Source: a virus (lineage: Duplodnaviria > Caudoviricetes). From it: 64,000 nucleotides of DNA. How positions within the stretch are numbered: position 1 is the stretch's first letter; each line of letters starts with the position of its first letter. Position numbers and translations under genes: made by a program. The notes below the pieces were generated by a model. It was not told where the DNA came from. It saw only the letters and a program-made list of their open reading frames with translations, and did not search any database. The stretch spans positions 1 through 64,000 of the IMG/VR virus record IMGVR_UViG_3300006133_000004; one strand, 5' to 3'. This document shows positions 15,345-20,526 of this stretch, piece by piece.

Positions 15345-15716
15345 ATGGCAGAGAAGAAACTCAGCACTGTTGAGCAGCTCAAGATGCTTGCCCTCAGAGC
15401 AAAGGCTGATTCTGCCGCCCGTATCGCCGCCCTGGCGGCATTGGTTGCCGATGGTTATGGGCATCTCATCACGGTCACTTTGCCGGCTGGCAAATGGAGC
15501 GGCAGAGCACAGAAAATCGAACATCAGGCCCTTTTGGCGAACAGCGGCTACTGTTACTTTGTCTGCGGCGACGCCGACTGCTACATGGATTGCAGTGACA
15601 CCGGCATCAAAGCGGACAATGTTGTAAAGGACGGTGAGGTTATGTTCCGATGTGAAGTCACACCCGACATAGACCTGACCGTAAATATTCTTCGACTGGA
15701 GGTCGAGACAGAATGA
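15345..15716 (+). CDS. Hypothetical protein paralogous to the C-terminal domain of 12766-14049
   Basis: Shared pattern (V/L)xxPAxxW...YFV..D...P..D(I/L)TVN(V/I)(I/L)R(F/L)E. Confidence 0.65.
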   Translation: MAEKKLSTVEQLKMLALRAKADSAARIAALAALVADGYGHLITVTLPAGKWSGRAQKIEHQALLANSGYCYFVCGDADCYMDCSDTGIKADNVVKDGEVMFRCEVTPDIDLTVNILRLEVETE

Positions 15717-18460
15717 GTGAAAACCCCAATGTCGGCAAGGTATTCAATCTGACCGGCGGTGGCAGTAACGGCTCTCTCAAACTGGAGAGTTTGGATGTCA
15801 CCAAGCCCCCTATCAAGACAACTTATAAGTCCGGGGAGAGCTTTGACCCCACTGGTATGGTGGTAACTGCCAGCTATGGCTATGGCATCACCTCGGACGT
15901 GACCGGATACACCGTGACCCCCTCCGTCCTGACCGACGGTACTACCGAGGTCACTATCACCTACACTGAGGGCCGAACCACTAAGACGGCGAGTACGCCT
16001 GTGACTGTGGAGAAAGTCCTGGTATCCATTGAGGTCGCTACCAACCCGACCAAGATGACCTATAACTACCTGGAGAAGTTCGAGCCTCATGGAATGGCTG
16101 TGACCGCCACATTTTCGGACGGTTCCAAGTCTGCCGCCACAGGGTATAGTTATCCCACCACGGAGTTCTCCACGCTGGGGCAGCAGGCTGTGAATCTGGA
16201 TTACACCTTTGAGGGGGTTACCAAATCCACCAGTCTGACAGTGACGGTCGATCCCATTGAGGTGCCCGTTCCCACCCAGAAAGACGCCCCCAGCTATGAC
16301 GGCAGCACTAAGCAGCCCATCTGGAACGGGTATGATTCCGTCAAAATGGCATTGGGCGGAACGACTGATGGAGTCAACGCCGGCAACTATACCGCTAAGT
16401 TCACTCTGGTCTACGGCTATGTATTCCCTGATGGGAGTAATGAGGCCGAGGCGGAATGGACAATTAGCAGAGCGGTTATTCCGGCACTGCCCACACAGAA
16501 CAACGCTCTGGCCGCCGACGGCACGCCCAAGTCTCCTACTTGGGATGGTTACGTCGTAGGTCAGCTCACTATCAGTGGTGACCGATTCGGAACCGAGGCC
16601 GGCGACTACACTGCCGAGTTTACCCCGACCGACAACTATCAGTGGTGGGACGGCACTACTGATATGAAGACCGCTACCTGGACTATCTCCAGCGTCATCG
16701 TCCCTATCCCGACGCAAAAGGGCTCCCTCACCTATACCGGGGCGGCCCAGACGCCTCAGTGGGATAACTTCGATACGGAGAACTCTACCGTACAGGTCAC
16801 GCCTGCTACGGATGCCGGCGAGCATACGGCTACGTTCTCTTTGCTGGCAGGTATGTGGTCGGATGGCACCACAGCCAACAAGACCATCAAGTGGGTCATT
16901 GGTCGGGCCACCATCGCCAAGATTCCGGCTCAGAGCGGTATGCCGAAGTACGACGGCAACCCCAAGACTCCGACCTGGGACACCAACTATGACGCCACCA
17001 AGATGACGTTGAGTGTGGAGGCCAAGGTCAATGCCGGGACGGCCTATACGGCTTCGTTCACTCCGACCCCCAACTATCAGTGGCCGGATGGTACGATTGA
17101 AGCCAAGGTGGTTACCTGGGCCATTGGGAAGGGCAATAACGCCATTACGGTGAGCCCCACTTCGATTACGCTGAACACTGCTAACAAGAGCGGAAAGTTT
17201 ACTGTCAGCCGGAAGGGCGACGGTACTATCACCGCCACCTCCAGCGACACCAAGATCGCTACCATCGGCGCCATCAACCAGACCACCGGTGAGGTAACTG
17301 TCAACAGCGTTGGCGATACTACCGGCACTGCGACCATCAAAGTCAAAGTTGCCGAGAGCGCCAACTACCTTGCCCCGGCGGATAAGGATGTTCCGGTCAA
17401 GGCACAATTCGTCACCATCTACGGCGTGGAATGGGATTGGACCAGTAGCGGCCCCACCAAGGGCACCCGCACCGACGCAGCGGCCGGGTTCAGCGATCCC
17501 AATCCTGCTGTGAACAACGGCACCGGTTCCTCTCCCTTCGACAGCCTGATGCCCTGGGCCGGCATGGTCAAAGAGACCCGAACTGGCGGTGTGATGGTGA
17601 AGGAGCCCAAGTATTGGTTTAAGTGGACCAAGACGGGGAAGAAGCTGAAACTGCAAATTGCGGACGGCCCCGTGGATGGGTTCCATGTGGACCCTGTGAA
17701 CATGGATAAGGGCGACGGCCTGGGCGAGCTGGACTTCTCCTACATCGGGCGGTATCACTGCGCCTCCGGCACCTACAAGTCGGAGACTAACAAGGCGCAG
17801 CAGGTCAGTATCACCAGGAGTGCGGCTCGTACCAGTATCCACAATTTGGGGGCCAACATTTGGCAGATGGACTTCGCCCAGATGTGGTATGTGGGTATGC
17901 TGTATCTGGTGGAGTTTGCTGATTGGAATGGTCAGAAGACGATCGGTCGGGGCTGTTCCGCCGCCGGCTCCAAGGAGAACAACGGCAAGACGGACGCCAT
18001 GCAGTACCACACCGGCACTACGGCGGCCAATCGGACTACCTACGGGTACACCCAGTACCGCAACATTGAGGGCTGGTGGGACAACGTCTATGACTGGATG
18101 GACGGCTGTTATTACAACAGTAACGGCCTGAATGTTATCTTGAACCCCAGCAAGTTCAGTGATAACGCAAATGGTACACTGATTGGTTCCATGCCTTCGA
18201 GCGGTTATCCGAACGATATGGCAGTTCCGACACAAAGTGGATTCGAGTGGGCGCTTCGTCCGGCCACAACCGGCGGCAGTGACAGCACTTATGTCCCGGA
18301 TTACTGGGATTTCAACGGTAGTAACCCGTGCCTGTTCCGCGGCGGTAACTATAACCAGAGCCAGTATCGCGGGCCGTTCTGCGTCGGCTACAGCAGTACG
18401 TCGAACGCGGTCACCATCATCGGCTGTCGCCTCCAGGAACGCCCGCCGAAGGCGGCGTGA
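15713..18460 (+). CDS. DGR target protein: Ig-like repeat tail fibre / receptor-binding protein with C-terminal variable (C-type lectin-like) domain
   Basis: Two Big_3-like repeats (KTTYKSGESFDPTGMVVTA), about four Y(D/T)G..K.P.W repeats, then a C-terminal domain carrying the VR. Confidence 0.88.
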   Translation: MSENPNVGKVFNLTGGGSNGSLKLESLDVTKPPIKTTYKSGESFDPTGMVVTASYGYGITSDVTGYTVTPSVLTDGTTEVTITYTEGRTTKTASTPVTVEKVLVSIEVATNPTKMTYNYLEKFEPHGMAVTATFSDGSKSAATGYSYPTTEFSTLGQQAVNLDYTFEGVTKSTSLTVTVDPIEVPVPTQKDAPSYDGSTKQPIWNGYDSVKMALGGTTDGVNAGNYTAKFTLVYGYVFPDGSNEAEAEWTISRAVIPALPTQNNALAADGTPKSPTWDGYVVGQLTISGDRFGTEAGDYTAEFTPTDNYQWWDGTTDMKTATWTISSVIVPIPTQKGSLTYTGAAQTPQWDNFDTENSTVQVTPATDAGEHTATFSLLAGMWSDGTTANKTIKWVIGRATIAKIPAQSGMPKYDGNPKTPTWDTNYDATKMTLSVEAKVNAGTAYTASFTPTPNYQWPDGTIEAKVVTWAIGKGNNAITVSPTSITLNTANKSGKFTVSRKGDGTITATSSDTKIATIGAINQTTGEVTVNSVGDTTGTATIKVKVAESANYLAPADKDVPVKAQFVTIYGVEWDWTSSGPTKGTRTDAAAGFSDPNPAVNNGTGSSPFDSLMPWAGMVKETRTGGVMVKEPKYWFKWTKTGKKLKLQIADGPVDGFHVDPVNMDKGDGLGELDFSYIGRYHCASGTYKSETNKAQQVSITRSAARTSIHNLGANIWQMDFAQMWYVGMLYLVEFADWNGQKTIGRGCSAAGSKENNGKTDAMQYHTGTTAANRTTYGYTQYRNIEGWWDNVYDWMDGCYYNSNGLNVILNPSKFSDNANGTLIGSMPSSGYPNDMAVPTQSGFEWALRPATTGGSDSTYVPDYWDFNGSNPCLFRGGNYNQSQYRGPFCVGYSSTSNAVTIIGCRLQERPPKAA
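18291..18434 (+). repeat. DGR variable repeat (VR)
   Basis: 144-bp ungapped match to 18614-18757 with 17 mismatches, 16 opposite TR adenines; lies at the 3' end of the target CDS. Confidence 0.96.
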
Positions 18461-18515
18461 TTCCCCTGATAGAGGAAGGGGTTTGGGGTGAGGGGACCGC
18501 AGTCCCTTCCCCCAA
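18443..18515 (+). promoter_or_regulatory. GC-rich hairpins after VR (candidate DGR homing/IMH-associated structures)
   Basis: CCGCC-GAA-GGCGG at 18443-18455; a roughly 14-bp imperfect stem with CGCA loop at 18483-18515. Hairpins downstream of IMH are established for the BPP-1 DGR. Confidence 0.65.
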
Positions 18516-18613
18516 CTCTACGCCTTTGAACAATTCAAAATGGAGCTGAAACGCTCTTAAAAATCGCTTTTCTTTTGATAAAGGGAAGCGCGGGGTCAAC
18601 TTTGCAGCAGACG

Positions 18614-18757
18614 ATGTCCCGGATAACTGGAATTTCAACGGTAGTAACCCGTGCCTGCACCACGGCGGTAACTATAACCAGAACCAGAATCACGGGCCGT
18701 TCTACGTCAACTACAACAGTACGTCGAACACGAACACCAACATCGGCTGTCGCATCC
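18614..18757 (+). ncRNA. DGR template repeat (TR)
   Basis: AAC/AAT-rich invariant copy of VR, located between target gene and RT. Confidence 0.95.
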
Positions 18758-18954
18758 TTGATAAGCCACGGGCTAAACCTCCTATAGGTAGTCAGGGTTC
18801 CTCACCCTTTCTATTACGCATCGTTGACCGCGCAGCACTGGCTGAAGATGAGCCGACAGGACACAGCTTAGTACACTTCGGGCCGGGTCTCGCCTCGGAA
18901 CACCCCGCGGCGATGGAACAGTTGTGAGGCTACAAGGAGGAAAACATATCCCTG

Positions 18955-20130
18955 ATGAAACGAGTTCGAGTTTACCAACAAATCCTCTCTGAGGAAAATC
19001 TGCGTCTTGCCATCCAGGAGGTCTGCCGCAGTCACCGGCGCAATGGCGACCACAGCCTGAACAAGAAGGTGCTGGAGATCGAGGCAAACCTGGACGACTA
19101 TGTGAAGGAGCTTCACAAGTTCATCGAGGACCTGGTGAGCGGAGACGCCCATATGAACAAACCTATCAAGCGACGGCGCTGGGACCGGAACGGAGACAAC
19201 GGGCGAGGGAAATGGCGAGACATCAACGAGCCCTTGTTATGGCCGGACCAGTGCGTCCATCACGCGGCCTTACAGGTCATGATTCCGCACATCATGCGGG
19301 GTATGGACCGCTACTGTATTGCAAGCGTTCAAGGCCGGGGCAACTCCTACGGCGTGAAGGCGCTGAAGAAGTGGATGGATGACGACCCCGTTGGTACCAA
19401 ATATGCCTTGGAGTGCGACATTTACCACTGCTTCGAGGAACTGGACCCGGCGTATGTCATCAATGCACTGAAGCGGCTGTTCAAGGACCGGGAAACCCTT
19501 TGGCTGTGCGACGCCATGATGGAGTACGGTGTGCTGATCGGCGCATTCTTCTCCGCATGGTTCCTGCACCTTACAATCCAGCCGTTAGACCTGATGATTC
19601 ACGACAAGAAGTATGGCGTGAGTCACTATTTGCGGCAGATGGACAACTTTACCATCTTCGGTTCCAACAAGCGAAAGCTGAGGAAGCTGTTGGAGGACAT
19701 GAAGGTCTGGCTGGCCGCAGTCGGATTGAAGCTGAAGGGAAACTGGCAGATCTTCCGGGTGGGCTTCACACCTCTGGTTGCTAAAGCCCATGAGATGCTG
19801 CCCGAGAAAAAGCAGCGGCATCGCCGGCCAAGAATGCCATCCGCTCTTGGTTATCGGTTTGGTCGCGGGTACACGATTCTTCGGAAACATAATCTGTTCC
19901 GGCTGAAACAATCGCTGCATCTGTACTACTATCGACGAGATCGGAACCGGGTCATCTCATTCAAGAGAGCATCCGGCTTGATTTCGCGGCTTGGGCAGCT
20001 TCGCAAATGCAACAGCCAACAGATACTGGAGCGGTACTACCAACCGAAGACGATGTTCGATTTGAAGAAGGTCGTCCGAAAGGAATGCAGGCGGCTTCAA
20101 GCATTATATCCGCCTTATGTGGCGGCATAA
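18955..20130 (+). CDS. DGR reverse transcriptase (divergent; QMDN at the YxDD position)
   Basis: RT motifs PDQCVHHA, ASVQGRG, ECDIYHCF, LIGAFFSAW, LRQMDNF, LGYRF; AAGGAGG RBS; adjacent to TR. Confidence 0.9.
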   Translation: MKRVRVYQQILSEENLRLAIQEVCRSHRRNGDHSLNKKVLEIEANLDDYVKELHKFIEDLVSGDAHMNKPIKRRRWDRNGDNGRGKWRDINEPLLWPDQCVHHAALQVMIPHIMRGMDRYCIASVQGRGNSYGVKALKKWMDDDPVGTKYALECDIYHCFEELDPAYVINALKRLFKDRETLWLCDAMMEYGVLIGAFFSAWFLHLTIQPLDLMIHDKKYGVSHYLRQMDNFTIFGSNKRKLRKLLEDMKVWLAAVGLKLKGNWQIFRVGFTPLVAKAHEMLPEKKQRHRRPRMPSALGYRFGRGYTILRKHNLFRLKQSLHLYYYRRDRNRVISFKRASGLISRLGQLRKCNSQQILERYYQPKTMFDLKKVVRKECRRLQALYPPYVAA

Positions 20131-20142
20131 AGGAGTGATACC

Positions 20143-20508
20143 ATGAAAGTACATGGGATGGTAGATCCCGGCAGTTTTACCGTGGAACAGATCCCCGGGA
20201 CAAACAGGAGTCTCGTGCGGCTTTTCCAGAACGTCGAGCCTTATGAAAAGGACGACTTTCAGGGGTTCCAGTACGATGAGTACCACGTTGAGGTGGAAAC
20301 CTGGGACGGCGTTGCCCAGAACGTGCTGGACAACTACGACGAGTTCCTGAAGAAGGGCATGGACAACGAGATCGACCGGAGCAACGACGCCCTGTTCCGG
20401 GCCCAGGCGGAGACAGATGTCGCCGTCCAGGACATGGACGCCATGAACGTAGACCACGAGTACCGGCTGACCCTGCTGGAGCTGGGCCTGTCCGAGACTG
20501 ATATTTGA
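20143..20508 (+). CDS. XkdW-like tail-fibre-associated protein
   Basis: AAGGAG RBS; acidic 121 aa with C-terminal coiled segment; precedes an XkdX-like ORF. Confidence 0.55.
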   Translation: MKVHGMVDPGSFTVEQIPGTNRSLVRLFQNVEPYEKDDFQGFQYDEYHVEVETWDGVAQNVLDNYDEFLKKGMDNEIDRSNDALFRAQAETDVAVQDMDAMNVDHEYRLTLLELGLSETDI

Positions 20509-20526
20509 GGAAAGGAGGAATAAATC

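Follow-up and report, generated by a model that had tools for sequence, protein, structure and literature searches.

A 64,000-nucleotide (nt) stretch of a Caudoviricetes genome (positions 1 to 64,000 of IMG/VR record IMGVR_UViG_3300006133_000004), referred to below as the window, carries a diversity-generating retroelement (DGR) whose reverse transcriptase (RT) reads Gln-Met-Asp-Asn (QMDN) at motif C in place of YMDD. The record as a whole is an 84-kb virus genome, rated complete by CheckV. The cassette is arranged in the order target gene with its variable repeat (VR), GC-rich hairpin, template repeat (TR), RT-18 RNA and RT (Table 1). Taken together, the observations described below make it very probable that this is a complete and currently active DGR of a mouse-gut phage, equipped with a natural RT whose motif C ends in Asp-Asn (DN type, as opposed to the canonical Asp-Asp or DD type) and devoid of Avd.

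Table 1. Features of the DGR cassette in the window (aa, amino acids; ORF, open reading frame; AF2, AlphaFold2)
Feature	Position	Strand	Basis
DGR target, 915-aa tail-fibre/adhesin with Ig-like repeats and VR at the C-terminus	15713-18460	+	ORF, Pfam, PHROG
VR, last about 48 codons of the target	18291-18434	+	144-nt gapless repeat of TR
GC-rich hairpin just 3' of VR, overlapping the target stop codon	18439-18458	+	DNA fold, 8-bp GC stem
TR, non-coding, 43 adenines	18614-18757	+	Repeat pair; TR polymorphisms mirrored in VRs of sister cassettes
Mutable TR cytosine, CTG-C-ACC, base 1 of a CAC codon	18658 (VR partner 18335)	+	VR comparison
RT-18 RNA (Rfam RF03021), between TR and RT	18833-18939	+	65 bits versus gathering threshold 41.3, E = 3e-11
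DGR RT, DN type (QMDN), 391 aa	18955-20130	+	ORF, PHROG 1423, bRT match, AF2/Foldseek, dN/dS
Motif A codons E153-C154-D155 (GAG TGC GAC), in LECDIY: catalytic Asp and Glu at -2	19411-19419	+	Sequence
Motif B/4, IGAFFSAW, SA replacing the DGR SQ	19537-19560	+	Sequence; aligned to bRT IGSLTSQ
Motif C, CAG ATG GAC AAC = Q228-M229-D230-N231, replacing YMDD, in LRQMDNF	19636-19647	+	Sequence

The reverse transcriptase and its cassette

An earlier note on this DNA had read QMDN, IGAFFSAW and the motif A Asp from the letters alone, and all three readings hold, both in the DNA and in an alignment to the RT of the BPP-1 DGR (bRT). S200-A201 is encoded by TCC GCA at 19552-19557, and the replacement of Tyr by Gln does take two base changes (TAY versus CAG), as the note had stated. 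The only sequence match of the window RT in the PDB is bRT (phmmer; 8ub7, E = 1.7e-5), whose LKSDFSKFF, IGSLTSQ and RYMDDIVVLG segments align to LECDIYHCF, IGAFFSA and RQMDNFTIFG, respectively, so that the motifs are correctly assigned. The protein also matches PHROG 1423, annotated as reverse transcriptase (E = 4e-48). An AlphaFold2 model (mean predicted local distance difference test score, 78.3) superimposes on chain A of 8ub7 with a template modelling (TM) score of 0.77, normalised to target length (Foldseek, E = 1.7e-12), and matches bRT, G2L4 and the group II intron RT GsI-IIC with E values of about 1e-12. The gene starts 197 nt past the end of TR, an RT of the DGR clade thus adjoining its template. 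Where canonical DGR RTs carry the signature (I/L/V)GxxxSQ, the window RT has IGAFFSAW, and QMDN stands in place of the YxDD box with both aspartates.

The DGR target matches Pfam Big_3 (E = 4e-7), PHROG 37900 (E = 7e-94) and PHROG 5302, a "tail protein" family (E = 1.5e-40); no Pfam match to a CLec or FGE fold was found in it. The fold of the hairpin beside VR has a z-score of -1.05, which is not significant by itself. By analogy to the BPP-1 architecture, this hairpin would be a candidate target-recognition element next to a repeat end resembling the initiation of mutagenic homing (IMH) site.

The 3' end of the RT-18 RNA coincides with the ribosome-binding site of the RT gene, and the same RNA is located at the same place in 15/15 relatives tested, of both DN and DD types and all Avd-less. 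By comparison with the Sp RNA of BPP-1, by which template and primer are positioned in bRT (10.1101/2023.10.23.563531), it is probably the RT-binding, spacer/priming part of the DGR RNA. The region between TR and RT as a whole does not fold more stably than shuffled sequences (z = -0.45), and a structured RNA at this position is therefore supported by the Rfam model and not by bulk folding. On a broader scale, these matches suggest that a large group of DGRs in gut phages uses the orphan Rfam motif RT-18 as spacer RNA.

Many but not all DGRs have the accessory protein Avd (or HRDC). Avd (PF05635) has no match at E ≤ 1 across the complete 84-kb record, and there is no space for an avd gene between VR, TR and RT. 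A 121-aa ORF located 3' of RT (20143-20508) was considered as a substitute for Avd and rejected: it has no Pfam match, is conserved only within the QMDN phage lineage and does not occur beside YMDN or DD RTs. From this distribution, the ORF belongs to the phage lineage and not to the DGR.

Functionally, the cassette is a BPP-1-like DGR that lacks two canonical RT signatures (YxDD and SQ) along with Avd. Like the BPP-1 DGR (mtd-VR / avd / TR-Sp / brt; 8ub7-8ubf), it is a phage element that diversifies the C-terminus of a receptor-binding tail-fibre protein by adenine-specific transfer from TR to VR, and in both elements a structured RNA separates TR from RT. The resemblance extends to the enzymes, bRT being among the top structural matches as well, with the Asp of motif A and the first Asp of motif C kept in both. 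In contrast, bRT has YMDD, SQ and Lys at position -2 of motif A, whereas the window RT has QMDN, SA and Glu, and Avd is missing from the window phage. Furthermore, bRT consists of 328 aa, compared with 391 aa for the window RT, which is longer at the C-terminal end and contains a basic insertion; the two proteins are about 18-19% identical.

The insertion comprises 21 aa (the GFTPLVAKAHEMLPEKKQRHRRPRM region; RT residues about 270-292, nt about 19762-19830) and is found in the QMDN clade, with a very basic second half. YMDN and DD relatives lack it in the alignment, and in the AlphaFold2 model it is partly helical, with moderate confidence.

Recent adenine-directed transfer from TR to VR

When binned by codon position in the frame of VR, the TR adenines fall 20 at position 1, 23 at position 2 and none at position 3. 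VR differs from TR at 17 of 144 nt; 16 of these differences are at TR adenines, all in codon position 1 or 2, and the remaining one is a C>T change at TR position 18658. All relatives share one of these 16 differences, A>C at 18754/18431; VR and TR diverge past ATCGGCTGTCGC, and this fixed A/C difference, to judge from its invariance among the relatives, marks the repeat boundary and is not a product of mutagenesis. The count of 16 adenine-specific differences in the earlier note is correct and includes this fixed position.

Six IMG/VR contigs (L003-L008) carry sister cassettes with RTs that are 97-99% identical at the nucleotide level. In five of them the spacer between VR and TR is identical or differs by a single base, and in L003 it differs at 33/179 positions. 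These six contigs have six different VRs, each with 14-25 adenine-site differences from TR. Moreover, the TRs of L003 and L005 have private non-adenine changes that recur in the VR of the same cassette, and because of this recurrence the copying in these two cassettes can be assigned the direction TR to VR. By this sequence comparison, the transfer is directional, as expected of mutagenic retrohoming.

The stretch is present in 22 mouse-gut metagenome runs from 13 studies. Contigs of four of these runs, each from a different study, were compared over 17900-20200. None differs from the window in TR, the spacer or the whole RT, and each differs at 10-21 positions in VR. Among the variable VR positions in the four runs, 29/30 are partners of TR adenines and one is the partner of C18658. 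Run X7 yielded two alternative 171-nt VR contigs, and the assembly of run X12 is interrupted at VR. Judged from these near-identical genomes, adenine-directed transfer from TR to VR is recent.

Over the compared interval, only one difference from the window lies outside VR, namely a 4-nt replacement of TCGG by CTAC at 17947-17950, in the target upstream of VR, which is common to the contigs of X3 and X7. A mosaic was also seen among the sister cassettes: compared with the window over 17500-20510, the RT protein of L004-L008 is 99% identical, the C-terminal 315 aa of the target about 83% and the ORF that follows RT about 86%, a pattern of RT versus flank identity that points to recombination around the DGR.

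Paired repeats accompany the RT in all relatives examined, down to 25% identity, and the pairs of other DN families (YVDN, HMDN and YMDN) are adenine-specific as well. Related QMDN prophages are present in Oscillospiraceae/Clostridia genomes, the copy in the cultured strain Muriventricola aceti H5_61 (L066) being intact. Another locus, L069 of Clostridiales bacterium CCNA10 (AP018533.1), has an RT about 115 nt shorter than the intact gene, out of frame and with 10 stops, next to a TR/VR pair with 22 adenine-site differences; a broken RT beside an adenine-divergent pair identifies it as a relic cassette.

The spectrum of substitutions at TR adenines varies among clades. Across the QMDN and YMDN loci (the window with L003-L038, L030-L034 and L112-L121), A>C makes up 4/391, 2/83 and 6/111 of them, compared with 24/118 in DD relatives and 46/152 (30%) in the YVDN family (L039-L057 and L084-L108). 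The DN active site was considered as the cause of the near-absence of A>C and rejected on account of the independent, A>C-rich YVDN family; the depletion is therefore specific to the clade and not a property of DN. With A>C almost absent, the QMDN/YMDN clade samples about 9 instead of 16 codons per AAC. In addition to the adenines, the VR partner of C18658 is substituted in 15/23 loci of the QMDN clade, mostly by C>T and at about the frequency of an adenine, and it is T, C or G across the window and the four runs. This mutable cytosine could reflect a site-specific error of the RT or selection on rare errors.

Conservation and distribution of DN-type reverse transcriptases

Of the 120 best homologues of the window RT in the database, 96 contain the sequence (L/V/I/M)RQMDNF combined with SA or SS at the SQ position, the most distant of them being about 60% identical; at about 50% identity follow 11 relatives with (L/I)RYMDNF and SQ. 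From the sequences, the QMDN group is nested inside a wider YxDN clade that retains SQ, and one sublineage of DN-type RTs subsequently exchanged Tyr for Gln and Gln for Ala. When 1.8 billion cluster representatives were searched exhaustively with HMMER, 1603 matches were obtained, and the motifs were read in the 113 nearest usable ones. Motif C is YMDD in 43 of these, YMDN in 15, YADD in 11, YVDD in 10, YIDD in 8 and NMDD in 5; the rest of the xxDN motifs are YIDN (3), QMDN (2), YVDN (2) and HMDN, YLDN and YADN (1 each), for a total of about 25/113. From this survey, the replacement of Asp by Asn characterises a DGR-type RT group of considerable size. The SQ position is less distinctive: it reads SQ in 62 representatives, SP in 17, SA in 15 and SS in 4, with SA mostly accompanying YMDD. 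Since SA is common among DGR RTs, the weight that the earlier note had placed on it was excessive.

The window RT is under strong purifying selection, as estimated from pairwise comparisons within the QMDN clade (dN/dS 0.02-0.10, median 0.09, 263 pairs, dS up to 1.4), and the codons CAG ATG GAC AAC are identical in 24/24 genes of this clade. Asn231 is invariant inside every DN family, with no reversion, and DD is equally invariant in DD families. The proposal of the earlier note that QMDN is fixed in a divergent RT lineage and does not stem from a read error is borne out: 96 relatives share the motif and are nested in the YxDN clade under purifying selection, 24 genes have the same motif codons, the contigs of four runs keep AAC and not GAC at the Asn codon, and YxDD is absent from the close relatives.

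In a quick maximum-likelihood tree, the window RT belongs to a well-supported clade of 11 sequences, all of the DN type, with a YMDD protein as sister. On this tree, DN requires at least 5 changes, and a single origin was rejected by the approximately unbiased (AU) test (p = 0.006; quick LG+G4 tree), which implies repeated gain or reversion of the DN association. Another DN family (YVDN, SH, AELDIH) is large and conserved; its nearest outside matches are also of the DN type, which leaves the number of origins uncertain. A "DLDN" family (L041-L053) initially suggested by a regular expression proved spurious, as alignment gives RYVDDM as the true motif C.

The YMDN-type RTs of gut-phage DGRs (L030-L034 and L112-L121; GenBank MT838586, an unannotated human faecal contig) resemble the window system in the Asn, the upstream RT-18 RNA, the order of the cassette, a homologous C-terminal domain of the target (about 54% identity) and a low A>C share. 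They differ in having kept Tyr and SQ, in the absence of the 21-aa basic insertion and in overall RT sequence, being 40-53% identical to the window RT. The nearest cultured phages by sequence, Lactobacillus phage LBR48 and Butyrivibrio phage Arawn, infect Firmicutes and have Avd-less DGR RTs of the same broad group as the window RT, annotated beside tail genes and 28-31% identical to that of the window; in contrast, they carry DD (NIDD in LBR48 and YMDD in Arawn) and Lys at motif A -2. Asn in place of the Tyr, as in LBR48 (L060), occurs in several DGR-type RTs with NIDD or NMDD (P0153, P0155, P0194 and P0255). As such RTs exist, one of them in a cultured phage, the Tyr position of the box appears to accept substitution more readily than the literature would indicate.

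Among 155 DGR RTs analysed by Schillinger and coworkers in 2012, both aspartates of motif C were 100% conserved and SQ was present in 90%, with neither SA nor SS among the listed variants of SQ (PMC3521204). The text of the survey by Wu et al. mentions no active-site variants. A search of open-access papers and bioRxiv for YMDN, QMDN or YxDN in RTs returned nothing relevant, which does not prove the motif to be undescribed; on the question of prior characterisation raised in the earlier note, no paper on QMDN or YMDN RTs was found in these sources.

The active site without the second aspartate

In the mechanism that we propose, the RT would bind a transcript of TR and RT-18 and copy it into cDNA, misincorporating opposite adenines, and this cDNA would then replace VR. 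We infer that the window RT itself performs the cDNA synthesis. Catalysis would rest on D155 of motif A and D230, the first Asp of motif C, with N231 serving as a neutral ligand or hydrogen-bond partner in a co-evolved set that would include E153 (motif A -2), Thr233 and, replacing D-F of the primer grip, S/N-A. In the active complex of bRT, Mg2+ is located 2.2 and 2.3 Å from D138 and D215, and D216 is not named as a ligand (10.1101/2023.10.23.563531). The counterparts of D138 and D215 are kept in the window RT as D155 and D230, and the replaced residue, N231, corresponds to D216. An Asn in motif C also occurs naturally in viral RNA-dependent RNA polymerases (RdRps), as GDN in negative-strand RNA viruses and as ADN in birnavirus VP1, the latter with lower activity (PMC9752661). 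These are right-hand polymerases that still work with Asn at the second acidic position of motif C; they nevertheless form another polymerase class, with an RNA product and other motifs, so that the parallel is one of analogy and not of family-level homology. bRT itself is a very slow enzyme, and its slowness has been tied to adenine mutagenesis (PMC7826257). As for the second altered signature, the Gln of SQ in bRT touches the base of the incoming dNTP (10.1101/2023.10.23.563531), and the bRT substitution Q187P left the misincorporation frequency unchanged (PMC7826257); for this reason, SA is not expected to abolish mutagenesis.

To identify residues that differ along with Asn231, 20 DN representatives were compared, column by column, with 78 DD representatives (those of ≥300 aa among the ones listed). 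The columns that best separate the two types are 231 (N versus D), 297 (A versus F/Y), 233 (T versus V/I/L) and 153 (E versus K), followed by 348 and 296 (S/N versus D). They map to motif A -2, motif C and the "DFLG" primer grip, and in the alignment they have the appearance of residues that co-evolve as a network about the active site. Glu occupies motif A -2 in 16/20 DN sequences (Gln in the other 4) and in 0/78 of the DD sequences listed, 60 of which have Lys. Phylogenetically independent pairs of Glu(-2) and Asn number 3 concordant, 0 discordant and 2 uninformative (p = 0.25), a result that is not significant and only suggestive. Because of this outcome, we go no further than to infer that catalysis has been re-wired in DN-type RTs. 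Possibly, although this is a tentative proposal, DN-type DGR RTs constitute a mechanistically distinct RT class that lost the third carboxylate and acquired a network in which Glu replaces Lys at motif A -2, Thr replaces Val/Ile at motif C +2 and S/N-A replaces D-F in the primer grip, the change having arisen or reverted repeatedly. If so, DN may tune metal binding and the catalytic rate for template-directed mutagenesis in the absence of Avd. QMDN and SA would then be a further change, at the two positions in contact with the primer and the incoming dNTP, which could be linked to the near-absence of A>C and to the mutable cytosine.

It is somewhat doubtful, but conceivable, that the enzyme is active and the replacement of Asp by Asn functionally neutral, the co-varying residues reflecting shared ancestry with no re-wiring. 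The Mg2+ contacts named for bRT, limited to D138 and D215, would fit such neutrality, as would the non-significant pairs test and a mutation spectrum that does not follow DN, given the 30% A>C of the YVDN family. Neutral drift, however, is hard to reconcile with an Asn231 that never drifts back within any DN family, with a Glu at motif A -2 that is essentially confined to DN sequences, with positions 233, 296 and 297 that switch along with 231, and with the AU test, by which the association arose or reverted more than once.

A more radical alternative, raised in the earlier note, is that the RT is dead and VR was diversified earlier or in trans. In its most explicit form, the QMDN protein would be catalytically inactive, perhaps an RNA-binding scaffold, and a canonical YxDD DGR RT of the host or of a co-resident prophage would diversify VR. 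Several observations weigh against the activity of the window RT. Changes of the second Asp are severely damaging in HIV-1 RT. The window RT scores 25.8 bits against Pfam RVT_1 (PF00078; E = 1e-5), under the gathering threshold of 29.6, although its predicted structure has an RT fold despite this score. The run data are contigs and not raw reads, and for this reason polymorphism within a sample is documented by one assembly bubble. Finally, a helper in trans is conceivable because DD-type relatives share the RT-18 RNA, which a related RT might therefore recognise, and because eight other RVT_1 matches are present in the genome of M. aceti H5_61, host of a related QMDN prophage.

Nevertheless, a dead RT appears unlikely. 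Strong purifying selection and the invariance of D155, D230 and N231 are hard to explain for a protein that is not an enzyme, and several large DN families, each with its own adenine-mutagenised VR, would all need a helper. No second RT was found in the complete 84-kb record. Near-identical cassettes differ in VR, private TR changes are mirrored, one sample contains two versions of VR, and fresh VR variants of the same phage are present in samples from four studies, all of which contradicts a dead RT with diversification at an earlier time or in trans. In addition, the two Asp residues that the window RT has kept are those named as Mg2+ ligands in bRT (10.1101/2023.10.23.563531). Recent inactivation of the RT, or a sequencing or assembly error at QMDN, with the VR differences as relics, has a precedent in the L069 cassette but is scarcely credible here, given the same codons in 24 genes (with synonymous divergence up to saturation), the motif in 96 homologues and in four independent runs, and VRs that differ between cassettes identical in RT, TR and spacer.

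An active DN-type RT in a working DGR would have practical as well as mechanistic consequences. Pipelines that demand YxDD or the Pfam threshold for RVT_1 would miss or mislabel DN-type DGRs. For the development of DGR mutagenesis tools, these systems would offer compact, Avd-free pairs of RT and RNA with a different substitution spectrum, and M. aceti H5_61 is a cultured carrier for experiments. For BPP-1, the cassette has already been reconstituted in E. coli (PMC12875486). The three aspartates of the RT palm are regarded as invariant and are the usual target for "dead" controls, for example, YMDD>SMAA in bRT. One of these catalytic residues is missing from the large natural family of RTs described here, and the comparative data indicate that its cassettes still work; for enzymologists, the family would thus provide a natural test of the role of the second aspartate in RTs.

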